Of a stretch of 64,000 nt of DNA, positions 7,878-52,093 are shown piece by piece. The stretch is from Candidatus Bathyarchaeota archaeon (lineage in GTDB: Archaea > Thermoproteota > Bathyarchaeia > Bathyarchaeales > Bathycorpusculaceae). Where the stretch lies: contig CAWDYC010000004.1 of assembly GCA_963806535.1 (NCBI GenBank), positions 128,001-192,000 on the forward strand, written 5' to 3'. Below the pieces are notes generated by a model, which saw nothing but the letters and a program-made list of their open reading frames with translations, did no database searches and was not told where the DNA came from. Numbering within the stretch: position 1 is the first letter of the stretch; each line of letters opens with the position of its first letter. The position numbers and the translations under genes were made by a program.

Positions 7878-8363
7878 CTATTTGGGTGTTGCCAGTTCCT
7901 TAGCTCTCTCACTAAGAATTTTGCCAAAGTTTTGTCCTATCGGAAAATTGACATCGGCACTGCAAGCGATTTGTATATTTTGAACCTCCGGGATTTTTCT
8001 TGCTTCCTTGAGTAAAACTTGGATGCTTTCTAGATCAGTAATGGGCGCAATTGCGAGGATATCATAAGGTCCAATAGTTTCTGTTACCACGATGATATTC
8101 CTTACTTTCTTGAGGAGTGAAATTATTTCGGATTTATTGCCGTTTGGAGAAGTTTTTATCAATAGAAATGCTTTACCCTGATACCCAATTTTGGAAAGGT
8201 CAATTGAAACAATATGGCTAAAGACTACTCCTTCTTTTTTCATTTTCTCATAGCGTCTTCGGACTGTAAACGGTGAAGCCCTTATTTTTTTTGCTATTTT
8301 CACAAATGAGAGTGTTGAATCTAGCAGCAATTCGCTTAATATTTGATAATCTGTCTTATCCAT
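7878..8363 (-). CDS. Lrp/AsnC transcriptional regulator
   Basis: MDKTDYQIL..L..D...SF..IAK HTH; GPYD in RAM domain. Confidence 0.9.
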   Translation of the reverse strand: MDKTDYQILSELLLDSTLSFVKIAKKIRASPFTVRRRYEKMKKEGVVFSHIVSIDLSKIGYQGKAFLLIKTSPNGNKSEIISLLKKVRNIIVVTETIGPYDILAIAPITDLESIQVLLKEARKIPEVQNIQIACSADVNFPIGQNFGKILSERAKELATPK

Positions 8364-8366
8364 ACT

Positions 8367-8852
8367 TCATCGCTTTTTATTTGGATTAAGATCAATATTT
8401 TCAAAATTCATTTGGGGCATACCAGCCCAGACGTTGACAACTATCTTTTCTATTCCAAACCTTTTTCTAACAGCATTTATTTTTTGATTCAAATTATTAA
8501 TGTCTTCCGCATATATAACTGCGCAAAAATCGTATTCGCCTACGCAAGTTGAAGGTTCAATCAAATGAGTATGTTCTTTAAAGAATTCAATAAGCTCTTC
8601 TGGATTTGAATCTGTTTCCATACCAATTGTTGCGACTATGTGAAATCCCAGATTGTCTAGTGAAGGAAAAAGTGTTGCTCCTGTAATGACACCAAGGTCT
8701 TCTAAATGTTTAATTCGATTTAGCACAGCAACTGAAGATATATTACACGTTTTAGCGATATTTTTTAAGCTGGTGCGTGCGTCTTGGATAAGTGAGAATA
8801 GAATTTTTCTGTCCGTTTCATCAATTTCGACAGTCGTTTCTTTTTGCCTCAG
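8367..8852 (-). CDS. Lrp/AsnC transcriptional regulator (probable CTG start)
   Basis: Frame extends upstream of track ORF: LRQKETTVEIDETDRKILFSLIQDARTSLKNIAK; GEYD motif. Confidence 0.88.
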   Translation of the reverse strand: MRQKETTVEIDETDRKILFSLIQDARTSLKNIAKTCNISSVAVLNRIKHLEDLGVITGATLFPSLDNLGFHIVATIGMETDSNPEELIEFFKEHTHLIEPSTCVGEYDFCAVIYAEDINNLNQKINAVRKRFGIEKIVVNVWAGMPQMNFENIDLNPNKKR

Positions 8853-9037
8853 TCAATTAATGATTTACAATAACATAAACGCTTCTAAACGAGAAACTGT
8901 TTCTGCAAAAAGTTTTCAATTTTGCTATTAAATTAGCTGAAATAATGTTATTAGTTAATTATAATTGCTGAGAAATGGCTAGTTACTAAACATTTATATC
9001 AATTCAGGTTTTTGCTGTTGAGATATTGGAAAAAGGT

Positions 9038-9146
9038 GGAGAGGCTGAGAGGGCTCTGGTGATCATGGGTCAATTTGGTTTTGCTCATGAAAGATTTGCA
9101 TTTTCTTATCTTCCTTAGGTTTGTCCAGAGCCTCAGCAAACTTTCT
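9038..9146 (+). ncRNA. BHB-motif structured RNA, copy 1
   Basis: GGAGAG/CTTTCT outer stem, GCTG/CAGC helix, AGA and AAA bulges, GGGCTCTGG/CCAGAGCCT inner stem; TTTATAT at ~8993. Confidence 0.72.
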
Positions 9147-9392
9147 AAAAGGATAAAGCCAAGGCCAATAAATTTTTGTTAATAGCGCGTGTGACTGTTA
9201 CGTGTTTAAGATTTTGAATTAATCTTCAATGATATGCATAATTATCTAATAAATGCATTTTAATTAAGCAATAAGTGTATTAACATTAATAATGATTCTT
9301 AGAGAAAGGTTGAATGCAAAGATTTTATAACTTACTGGCTTATACTTCTTGACTAAGGCAAGTGAGCTTAGCACTTGTCAGAGAGAGATGTG

Positions 9393-9502
9393 AGGGGCTG
9401 AGCAGGCTTTGGTTAAAATCATTAAATCGCGGATGTTTCGGGAAATTCGGCTCTCTTATCCCTAAGTTCTTCCTTCAATTGTCCAAAGCCTCAGCAAACC
9501 CT
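9393..9502 (+). ncRNA. BHB-motif structured RNA, copy 2
   Basis: AGGG/CCCT, GCTG/CAGC, AGC and AAA bulges, AGGCTTTGG/CCAAAGCCT; TTTTATAA at 9323-9330. Confidence 0.72.
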
Positions 9503-9863
9503 GAACAATAAGAGACTTTCAAAAAATTTTATCAGAGACATTTAGAATGTGAAATCTGGTGAAATTCTAGTATAAATCGGAAAATTGTTTATTTTCACTA
9601 AAGGAACATAAGACTTTTAAGTGAAAGTAGTGCTTGCAGTTTCCTCTTATTATTTCTTCCTTAGGCTGCACGCTTTACTTCCCCATATTAATTCAATTTC
9701 AATTTTGTGATTTTCACTCCGGAAACTTTTATTTTTGTCCCTATAAGACTGATATCCCTAATTCTTGCAAGGTTTTATTACCAAGTTAGTTACAATTAGA
9801 TTTTTTGTTGGACGAGATCATCAAACTTCTTGCCCGATATAAACCTAAGGAAGAAAAAGAAAA

Positions 9864-9940
9864 ATGAAAATGTTAAGAGAAAAGATATTAGCTTAGCTGT
9901 TGCGGCAATTCTGCTCTTCTATCTACGGCTATTTCGATTG
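9864..9940 (+). pseudogene. 5' remnant of a secreted-protein gene (signal-peptide-like start only)
   Basis: Purine-rich leader then MKMLREKILA and, after a shift, LAVAAILL; no continuing ORF. Confidence 0.4.
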
Positions 9941-10070
9941 GATGAATTCTGAATCAGATTGACCTAAGTTAGTAGATACGAAAATGATTGTCCTTTAAAA
10001 GGATTTGAATAAATGATAAGAACTCTTAAAAAAACACAAGAACGTTAGAGTTAATTGAAGAAAATTAATG

Positions 10071-10162
10071 TTAAGCGGATTTAGCCAAGTGCTAAACAAC
10101 AGGCAAAGTGTAAAACTCAAGAGGGGCACACTTCACCTCAGATAGCAGCCGAACCCGCTTAA
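10071..10162 (-). ncRNA. long irregular hairpin, candidate ncRNA
   Basis: TTAAGCGGG/TCCGCTTAA, TGCTA/TAGCA, AGGTGAAGTGTG/TACACTTTGCCT; G-U pairs work on the minus strand; TTTTATAT upstream at ~10217-10224. Confidence 0.45.
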
Positions 10163-10393
10163 GCAATCACTGGCTCTTAGCTTTTTTCGTTGTTAAAGAG
10201 ACTACGATTTAAGAGAATATAAAACAATGTTGTCTCAAATTGAACCAACAACTCTATTCCTTGACCTCGCCAAAAGAGGATTGAAAAAGATTTATGCGGG
10301 CTGTAGTGAGAGGCGTAATTGAGTTTTAGTCCGGTTATTTTACACATTTTGTTTGCGCAAAATAATTAAACAGTTTTGCACTATTAGAAATTC

Positions 10394-10822
10394 ATGACCA
10401 ACAACAAATTTACCCCTGAACTTGTTGCGCCTTGCGGAATGAATTGTGCCATTTGCAGAGCTTACGTCTCTTATACACATGGGGTACCGCGGGTAAGAGG
10501 GAAAATAACATATTGCGCCGGCTGCGTTCCCAGAGCCAAAAACTGCTACATCAAACGAGGCTGTAAAAAACTTTCCAAACACCAATTCCAATCCTGCAGC
10601 GAATGCGACACTATGCCCTGTGAAAAACTTGCTCATCTCGACAAACGTTACCGCGAACGCTATGACATGAGCATGGTAGAAAACCTAAAACTGCTGAAAG
10701 CCAAGGGCATGGCTGAATTCCTTAAGAGTCAAACACAAAAGTACACTTGCCCAAACTGCGAGGATGTAATTTGTGTGCATGATGCAAAATGCTTAGCATG
10801 TGGCTACAAAAGAAAAGCCTAA
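10394..10822 (+). CDS. DUF3795-like Cys-rich protein
   Basis: VAPCGMNCAIC...CAGC...C.IK.GC...CSEC..PC plus C-terminal CxxC pairs. Confidence 0.8.
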   Translation: MTNNKFTPELVAPCGMNCAICRAYVSYTHGVPRVRGKITYCAGCVPRAKNCYIKRGCKKLSKHQFQSCSECDTMPCEKLAHLDKRYRERYDMSMVENLKLLKAKGMAEFLKSQTQKYTCPNCEDVICVHDAKCLACGYKRKA

Positions 10823-40695: not shown

Positions 40696-40794
40696 AGGGG
40701 CTGAGAAGGCTCTAAATTAGATTCACAATATAACTATAGTTGAAGATTTTGCATTTTCTTCTCCTATAAAGTTTGCAGAGCCTCAGCATACCCT
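40696..40794 (+). ncRNA. BHB-motif structured RNA, copy 3
   Basis: AGGG/CCCT, GCTG/CAGC, AGA and ATA bulges, AGGCTCT/AGAGCCT; TATAAATA at ~40668-40675. Confidence 0.72.
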
Positions 40795-51233: not shown

Positions 51234-51906
51234 TCAAGGACTAGGGGTTTCTGCAATTATTGCGTTGTCCACTTCGGAAGCGATAAGAGCTGCGCCATCG
51301 GTGTTTGGATGGACGCCATCCATGAAATAGTCCGTGTGATTACCAAAAGCATTGTAGACATCAACTGTCGGCAAATTAAGATTATTTGCTACATTGTCAA
51401 TCTGTGGAATTACATTGTCGGCAAGATATGTGCTGTTATAGTTTGGGTTGTCAGTGAACATTGGTGGTGAATCCACAGCAAAGATTTGTGGGTTGCTGTC
51501 TAAGATTTTCGAAAGATGAAACAAGTTGGCTATAATCTGCTTCAAAAGTTTCGTTAGATTCATTTACGTCTGTGCGGGCATCGTTGGTTCCCAGCATAAT
51601 GACAACATAGTTTGGGTCGAATTGCTCGGCTTTTTGGAATGCAGTCTGATTCATGTATGGACTTGTAGAATTAAGTGACACAGTGGTACCGGGGACTCCA
51701 AAATTTCCCACTAAATAGTTTGTTCCAAGGAGCAGTTGTAGTTTAGCTGGGTACCCGCTTCCCTGAGTGATGCTGTCGCCTACACATGCCACACGAATTG
51801 GAGCATCTAAGGGTGTCATTTGTCGTATATTCATTATTTGAAAAGTGGCCATGTATGATGCCATTATCATCATTATAGCTCCAATTGCCAGTATTTTCTT
51901 ATTCAT
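51234..51906 (-). CDS. GDSL/SGNH hydrolase (frameshifted)
   Basis: VGDSIT, MLGTND, DGVHP. Confidence 0.88.
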
Positions 51907-52093
51907 GCGTTTTCAGTTCAACCGAAACAGTTCTCAGCATCAAATAAAACATTGAAATTTCGTTGTTTTATTTTTCCAATGTATCATCTGTGCGTAAGAT
52001 TAAAAATATAGGTTTAGCAAACAGGTAAATATGTTTGACGGTTCTAAAATCGGTCTTTTATGAATGCTTTCAATATTTTTGAAATTTCAAAAT

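Follow-up and report, generated by a model that had tools for sequence, protein, structure and literature searches.

The inverted repeat at 9038-9146 of the window, by which we mean the whole 64,000-nt stretch of DNA that was analysed, raises the question why a stem-loop should carry the complement of a translation start in its loop. The answer that we favour, held with about as much doubt as confidence and drawn from comparison of sequences, is that the repeat belongs to a set of gene-linked antisense small RNAs, transcribed from the + strand, which would block the translation of sister paralogs in a family of surface proteins.

Three copies in the window

The element occurs three times in the window, always on the + strand. 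Copy 1 (9038-9146; covariance model score 73.8 bits, fold -35.1 kcal/mol) is closed by an outer helix of 9038-9043 with 9141-9146, a 5-bp helix of GCTGA at 9044-9048 with TCAGC at 9133-9137, and an 8-bp helix of 9052-9059 with 9125-9132, with a 3-nt bulge at 9049-9051 on the 5' side and an AAA bulge at 9138-9140 on the 3' side. Its loop (9060-9124) ends in an anti-start segment, 9093-9124, which holds the anti-AUG CAT at 9099-9101 and the anti-SD CTTCCTT at 9110-9116. Read directly from the sequence, this segment reverse-complements to the 32-mer quoted in the initial annotation, a purine-rich leader with ATG and first codons, and the anti-start segment of copy 3 at 40743-40776 (+ strand) gives the quoted 34-mer of the same kind. 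The segment of copy 1 complements both a decayed gene start at 9837-9893 and the start region of a paralog on contig 11. Positions 9109-9122 are indeed a perfect 14-nt complement of 9841-9854, the 14-mer on the minus strand being equal to the + strand at 9841-9854. With at most one mismatch this 14-mer has only 2 matches in the window, and among 100 shuffles the mean was 0.06 and none reached 2.

Copy 2 (9394-9501, 83.3 bits) is built from GGG at 9394-9396 with CCC at 9499-9501, GCTGA at 9397-9401 with TCAGC at 9491-9495, and a helix of 9405-9412 with 9483-9490; its bulges are 9402-9404 and AAA at 9496-9498. It retains the anti-SD tract, TTCTTCCTT, and has no CAT at the expected place, as had been noted before, and 15 nt of it perfectly match the leader at the 5' end of a broken paralog at ~16.3 kb on contig 4. 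Copy 3 (40697-40793, 75.3 bits) has GGG at 40697-40699 with CCC at 40791-40793, GCTGA at 40700-40704 with TCAGC at 40783-40787, a shorter helix of 6 bp (40708-40713 with 40777-40782), and bulges at 40705-40707 and 40788-40790, the latter ATA. A TATA-like box lies ~25-31 nt upstream of this copy.

The 5' arm motif is found 3 times in the window as compared to 0.15 expected, a number that none of 100 shuffles reached. All three copies are solitary, with no adjoining gene of the surface-protein family described below. Copies 1 and 2 sit in a 2-kb gene-poor gap, which also has the site at 9837-9893 (+ strand). A profile of 14 family gene starts matches this site in nhmmer (E=0.0064), and on that match we read it as a decayed gene start of the family. 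It has an SD and an ATG at 9864-9866. The initial annotation had seen a signal-peptide-like ORF start here; the ATG is present, but it opens a frame of only 10 codons and the hydrophobic stretch lies in another frame.

Layout of the element

The element is an inverted repeat of ~100 nt with a loop of 55-75 nt. Along the + strand an outer helix (GGG/CCC, 3-6 bp; 6 bp in copy 1) is followed by a 5-bp helix (GCUGA/UCAGC), a 3-nt bulge G-N-N on the 5' strand, an 8-bp helix (GGCUYUGG/CCARAGCC) and the loop, and on the 3' strand a second 3-nt bulge, usually AAA, lies between UCAGC and CCC. RNAalifold on a MAFFT alignment gave the outer 6 pairs only, and the structure was therefore set by hand. The 18 full copies from this genome give 287 pair cells, of which 90.2% hold standard pairs, and minimum-energy folds reproduce the layout in most copies. 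Of the 101 copies that could be parsed, 92 have a 5' bulge that begins with G and 95 have AAA as the 3' bulge. The latter figure has to be read with the selection in mind, since an 18-mer that includes this AAA served to find 75 of the 121 copies entered (117 distinct). The 3' bulge is also mostly AAA in the 18 copies of this genome, and the exceptions in the alignment are ATA (twice), AAT, GCA and TCG (once each). Copies within the genome are 62-63% identical per column.

An inner hairpin is usual within the loop. The start-codon complement CAU is found in a hairpin loop in 31 of 81 copies, where a random triplet would be expected to lie in 17%. Of the anti-SD 80% is unpaired, and in only 37 of the 81 minimum-energy folds is the whole of CAU free of pairing. 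The anti-start sequence had been described as the unpaired part of the loop, which holds for most of the anti-SD, but the segment as a whole is only partly unpaired in these folds.

Rfam 15 gave no match for the elements: the whole window returned two tRNAs only, and on 8300-10500 no score exceeded 16.5 bits, with thresholds at 60-101. The layouts of K-turns, C/D-box RNAs, retrons, omega-RNAs and bridge RNAs were compared informally with the sequence, and none seemed to fit. Integron attC sites have the core consensus GTTRRRY, with R'' and R' core sites, and stand in cassette arrays beside an integrase; the ends of the element do not fit this core, and the linked genes are 2.7 kb and dispersed.

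Occurrence and linkage to surface-protein genes

In this genome, which is assigned to Bathyarchaeia, 21 copies were found by nhmmer (E<0.01) and 20 by the covariance model. Of the 24 other genomes of the genus that were searched, the model had matches in 21; of 16 genomes from other families of the order it had matches in one (G040), 15 in number. An exact 18-mer of the 3' arm matched 118 stretches in the species collection; among the 80 of these that were listed, 71 are assigned to Candidatus Bathyarchaeota or Bathyarchaeia, one to an uncultured archaeon, and eight are bacterial single hits. The covariance model placed 75 elements in 72 archaeal loci from these matches. The copies are mutually related, and such counts overstate their independence.

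Twelve of the 21 copies in this genome lie ~65 nt past the stop codon of a paralog of one protein family, on the same strand and just beyond a C-rich T-run. The proteins of this family are ~900 aa long and have a signal peptide, a PQQ-like beta-propeller, an Ig-like domain and a C-terminal hydrophobic anchor ending in RKRP. By tblastn the family has 23 loci in this genome, several of them frameshifted. In relatives a family ORF lies upstream of the element in 23 of the 28 best loci, with a gap of 44-78 nt in 22. Six longer stretches from relatives show gene-element-gene-element arrays, with 12 of 17 elements 55-72 nt after an ORF of at least 250 aa. When the coordinates in two other genomes were read by the author, 13 of 15 elements in G003 and 14 of 15 in G040 were directly behind family genes, and in G040 14 of 15 family paralogs carry an element. 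The orientation relative to the family gene is constant, and the linkage of element and family gene is one-to-one in three genomes.

Many paralogs are split into 2-3 ORFs by frameshifts or stops, for example on contig 4 at 16-18, 30-32, 74-77, 428-431 and 584-586 kb, on contig 7 at 153-156 kb and on contig 11 at 195-198 kb, which suggests a rapid turnover.

It was also possible to observe rearranged elements. Between two family paralogs at 44430-46460 of contig 4 there is a patch in which one copy has no 5' arm and, 1.3 kb away on the far side of an HTH-like gene, a 5' arm stands alone and points the other way. The patch also has a reversed loop without arms, in which ATG has changed to ACG, and another copy of the 3' half. 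At 404692-407131 of the same contig a 2.2-kb segment with three short ORFs is bordered on each side by a complete element, and these two elements are oppositely oriented. At 51754-51988 two tandem elements stand 32 nt apart behind one paralog, and the second is more degenerate, with GGCTGAC and two G-U stem pairs.

Complementarity of the loop to gene starts

The reverse complement of the 3' half of the loop aligns with the leaders of the family genes from about -27 to +10, which covers the leader, SD, spacer, AUG and first codons, in alignments that span 19-37 nt. By alignment score 118 of 399 loop-start pairs are above the 99th percentile of 1500 other gene starts. By duplex energy, in a comparison done with reduced samples, 48 of 378 pairs are below the 1st percentile of 200 other starts, as compared to ~3.8 expected (~12-fold enrichment). 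The best energies per loop range from -20.9 to -39.5 kcal/mol, with z from -1.2 to -9.6 relative to shuffled loops; copy 1 reaches -32.8 kcal/mol (z -5.1), copy 2 -27.9 and copy 3 -27.9 (z -4.1). The result was replicated in two genomes, with z from -1.9 to -10.8 in G040 and from -1.9 to -13.4 in G003. The proposal that the loops are antisense to the SD, spacer, AUG and first codons of paralogous large secreted proteins is borne out by these alignments, and the enrichment at family starts over other starts and shuffled loops, which the initial annotation had asked for, is seen in both measures.

For 3 of 5 loops tested a family start ranks 1 or 2 among 2926 ORF starts (at least 100 aa); it ties for the best of the 2926 with copy 1 and ranks 1 with copy 3. 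The loops within one genome share a consensus, their best targets pile on few paralogs, and many unrelated gene starts pair with them at -26 to -33 kcal/mol; the pairing specificity is therefore modest. Given the shared consensus and the piled matches, we would call the loop an anti-start sequence generic to the family, rather than a set of individually tuned guides. Of the constant scaffold with a variable guide that had been suggested, the nearly invariant stem stands, but the anti-start half of the loop is shared family-wide and it is the other half that varies. In this genome the paralogs without an element are matched better (median best -31.8 as compared to -22.7 kcal/mol, n=8 and 10, p=0.006), a post hoc comparison among related genes which cannot apply to G040, since almost every paralog there carries an element. 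The nhmmer profile of family gene starts did not recover the loops themselves at E<1, and from this we take the likeness between loop and gene start to be limited to ~20-45 nt.

A proposed antisense role and its alternatives

In the reading that we favour, the element would be read on the strand of the surface-protein gene that it follows, either as a small-RNA gene of its own or as an RNA module at the 3' end. Its long closing stem, with helices of 3-6, 5 and 8 bp and one 3-nt bulge per strand, would act as a scaffold for stability or processing and present the loop of 55-75 nt, the 3' half of which would be an inverted copy of the translation-initiation region of the family (about -27 to +10). 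The loop would base-pair in trans with the starts of sister paralogs, so that ribosome binding is occluded and translation lowered, and expression of one paralog locus would then dampen the other paralogs. We infer transcription of the + strand, pairing in vivo and translational repression.

The inverted repeat could instead work at the DNA level or be purely structural, with the start-like loop as a trace of the inverted duplication from which it originated, and we find this unlikely, though worth taking seriously. It could be a terminator-proximal hairpin, an insulator between tandem paralogs, a protein-binding site, or a hot spot of recombination or gene conversion. If the loops complemented family starts simply by their descent from an inverted duplicate, the enrichment would be the same in an element with no function. 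Summed over the 16 stem pairs of 121 copies there are 53 G-U and 54 A-C, which equals the neutral expectation and is what would be expected for DNA. The sequence of the arms is itself almost invariant, while the proteins neighbouring the elements are only 28-65% identical across relatives. The broken and inverted pieces at one locus outside the window, and the two opposite elements around 2.2 kb elsewhere, would also fit this explanation.

Other observations speak against a relic. In the closest relative (~81% identity) the arms of the syntenic copy 1 are identical, and the part from anti-SD to anti-AUG has 2 substitutions and 1 indel, whereas divergence is heavy in the other loop half and on either side of the element. 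The same part is conserved across roughly 140 copies and the rest of the loop drifts. This selective conservation, and a pairing of gene and element that is kept across family-level divergence (proteins down to 28%), are the strongest points against a relic. The constant orientation relative to the gene and the conservation of two asymmetric 3-nt bulges argue in the same direction. Among the arm and covariance-model matches in this genome there was no arm-like site upstream of family genes that could act as a recombination partner. In the closest relative copy 2 is degraded and the remnant at 9837 is absent, and the start that copy 1 matches best has no clear ortholog there, the best match being 66% identical and beginning inside the gene.

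The element might also act in cis, as a 3' module of the paralog's own mRNA. Read-through of the T-run would bring it into the transcript, where the anti-SD would pair with the ribosome-binding site of the same mRNA, for autoregulation or a closure of 5' to 3' end. The element is on the same strand, 44-78 nt past the stop, and any family SD gives about -18 kcal/mol with the loop, which could suffice in cis. We nevertheless regard a cis role as improbable. The own linked gene is not matched better than other paralogs or shuffles, its median being -18.0 kcal/mol as compared to -18.2 and -19.6 for others, and the alignment scores of own genes are 16-22 in 8 of 9 linked genes and 31 in the ninth, with a background 99th percentile of 20-26. 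The best family matches of the loops are paralogs other than the own linked gene. A loop aimed at its own gene was rejected on these figures, and so was one aimed at its neighbour in the array, as array neighbours are not matched either. Furthermore, gene and element are separated by the conserved C-rich T-run, typical of archaeal termination, which makes their co-transcription uncertain, and there are solitary copies without a family gene, among them the three in the window.

The transcribed strand

The antisense reading depends on the + strand being transcribed, and gene context, start-codon variants and bulge topology favour this strand. Upstream on the + side there are a conserved T-rich box at about -34 and an A-rich box at about -22, with nothing on the other side (107 and 106 distinct flanks); that these are promoters is read from consensus-like boxes only. 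At copy 1 the pairwise alignment with the closest relative shows a conserved 28-nt block with the TATA-like TTTATATC (8996-9025, + strand), separated from the copy by a diverged spacer, and a conserved T5 run at ~9193-9197, again with diverged sequence in between. The block is a candidate promoter and the T5 run a candidate terminator of copy 1. Mirror-image T and A runs around this copy could serve the other strand.

Counted by eye, a lost ATG has become ACG 9 times and ATA 3 times, and never GTG. The ACG and ATA variants can still form wobble pairs with AUG when read from the + strand. Other variants, also counted by eye, are TTG (2), CTG (1), ATT (3-4) and ATC (2). The evidence from the stem points both ways, and its total wobble counts are neutral, as given above. 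The one clearly covarying stem pair has 12 U-G as compared to 2 C-A intermediates, in favour of the + strand, and another pair has 9 A-C and 0 G-U, in favour of the other strand. The + strand fold is more stable in 13 of 18 copies, but by z-score it wins in only 11 of 18.

A product of the minus strand would have a strong ribosome-binding site and a mini-ORF, and could be a decoy for a leader-binding factor or a translated leader peptide. We give little credence to such a product, although a simple rule finds an SD and ATG at proper spacing in 97 of 144 copies, A-C at stem pair 8 is G-U on the minus strand, and the minus fold is the more stable one in 5 of 18 copies. The ORFs have 4-24 codons, they fall into all three frames relative to the arm (29, 23 and 22), and the peptides are unconserved, so that a conserved minus-strand coding element was rejected. 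The start codons were lost to ACG or ATA and never to GTG, the minus side has no conserved upstream signal, and the handedness of the bulges is wrong for a bulge-helix-bulge (BHB). The concern that the elements are minus-strand remnants of gene starts appears weakened by this.

A miniature inverted-repeat transposable element, or another mobile repeat that came to lie near family genes by chance, would explain the terminal inverted repeats, the size of ~100 bp and the many, sometimes solitary copies, but is very improbable, with a position fixed relative to one gene family in three genomes, copies only 62-63% identical per column and not near-identical, no direct repeats in the flanks inspected by eye, and no longer partner with the same ends in a scan for paired arms with 50-200 nt spacing.

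The closing stem and the bulge-helix-bulge motif

The two bulges raise the possibility of processing. The BHB is described as the substrate of the archaeal splicing endonuclease in tRNA introns, rRNA processing stems and circular RNAs (PMC7714728, PMC12558985, PMC12918454), and its definition asks for a central helix of exactly 4 bp (PMC7714728). The element has two 3-nt bulges on opposite strands and, in the + strand reading only, the 5'-strand bulge on the loop side and the 3'-strand bulge on the outer side of the central helix. This helix has five consecutive pairs, G-C, C-G, U-A, G-C and A-U, each in 16-18 of the 18 copies of this genome, where four is the definition. The fifth pair is A-C in 9 copies, and only such variants would have 4 bp. 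We thus consider the stem BHB-like and not a canonical BHB, and the name BHB in the initial annotation only approximate: the bulges and their handedness agree with that name, but the central helix does not.

As a reference we used the 16S stem of the same genome, since its tRNA introns gave a less clean picture of the BHB. The 16S leader and trailer form a textbook 3-4-3 BHB with helices of 9, 4 and 13 bp, a 3-nt bulge on the inner side of the 5' strand and a 3-nt bulge on the outer side of the 3' strand. The handedness of the element on the + strand is that of this genuine BHB, and on the minus strand it is the opposite. The 16S (contig 4, 221732-223226) and 23S (contig 5, 22193-25215) genes are on different contigs, each with a long leader-trailer stem. 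ARAGORN predicted introns of 21-80 nt in 5 of 45 tRNA genes, among them a tRNA-Trp with an 80-nt intron and a tRNA-Arg(tct) call with an odd anticodon position.

There are two homologs of the splicing endonuclease (PF01974) in this genome, at ~534.8 kb of contig 4 and ~78.7 kb of contig 8. The form of the enzyme with two homologs is described mainly from TACK archaea, with Bathyarchaeota among them, and is said to have a broader substrate range (PMC7714728). A cleavage of the element's stem is therefore possible. Like the known substrates, the element has two opposite 3-nt bulges flanked by helices, with the handedness of the 16S stem. It differs in its 5-bp centre in nearly all copies and in the conserved sequence of its arms, which an enzyme that reads structure only would not require. 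With less confidence than for the antisense pairing, we infer that the endonuclease cuts the BHB-like stem, possibly giving a circular antisense RNA.

An extended form of the antisense reading, which we hold to be quite unlikely, is that a splicing endonuclease of broad specificity cleaves at the bulges and that the products, exonuclease-resistant circular antisense RNAs of ~95 nt, form a cross-silencing network and an RNA-based switch of surface variation. In such a network only one or a few paralogs would be translated at once. The idea of a network comes from the observation that nearly every paralog carries an element, all aimed at a ribosome-binding site of the family type.

Comparison with known systems

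Trans-encoded antisense sRNAs that mask ribosome-binding sites have been described in archaea, for example sRNA162 of Methanosarcina mazei (PMC3510493; reviewed in PMC4152357). The element would be similar in being a short structured RNA that exposes a segment able to pair with the leader and start region of an mRNA from another locus. Unlike sRNA162, the elements number roughly 15-20 in a genome, and each goes with a member of the very family that it would target. They have a single kind of closing stem in common, nearly invariant and with two bulges, and the complementary segment would be an inverted copy of the family's own start region. In Sulfolobus solfataricus, the paralogous transposon-derived antisense RNAs RNA-257(1-4) are reported to pair with the 3' UTR of a phosphate-transporter mRNA (PMC3674436). 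The elements would likewise be a multicopy set of kindred antisense RNAs from a TACK archaeon that arose when sequence related to the target was duplicated, but they complement the translation starts of a surface-protein family, and no mobility was seen. By analogy, the elements would work most like trans-encoded archaeal sRNAs that mask ribosome-binding sites, and as a paralogous RNA family they would resemble RNA-257.

RNA-OUT of IS10 and the antisense stem-loops of plasmid copy control also present the complement of a start region and block ribosome binding across copies. Those RNAs are encoded in cis, opposite their target, whereas the antisense sequence of the element would be a separate inverted duplicate behind another copy of the gene. 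Plant microRNA genes are born by inverted duplication of target genes, so that there too the targeting segment originates as an inverted copy of the target; domain of life, machinery and size are different, and the analogy is one of origin only.

Bathyarchaeia are abundant, uncultured archaea of soil and sediment, and to our knowledge almost nothing is known about gene regulation in them. In the literature on Bathyarchaeia and on archaeal BHB, circular, antisense and small RNAs, mostly at the level of abstracts, we found no description of the element. If the elements are expressed, they would amount to a large family of regulatory RNAs that runs through the lineage, numbers hundreds of copies in the genomes sampled and has no Rfam model. 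They would also be a rare case of a gene family whose members each carry a silencer of their sisters, which is a plausible route to variable surface display, and an example of how an antisense regulator can arise when a start region is duplicated in inverted orientation. With its 5-bp centre, the BHB-like stem could also serve to test how much deviation from the 3-4-3 rule the heteromeric endonuclease accepts.

Another repeated sequence was observed in the window at 10071-10252. This stretch of ~180 nt is a single copy here, and in many relatives it has several matches per genome with 64-76% identity. It has no Rfam match and no long ORF, and its fold on the minus strand is strong (-54 kcal/mol), so it may be another repeated non-coding element.
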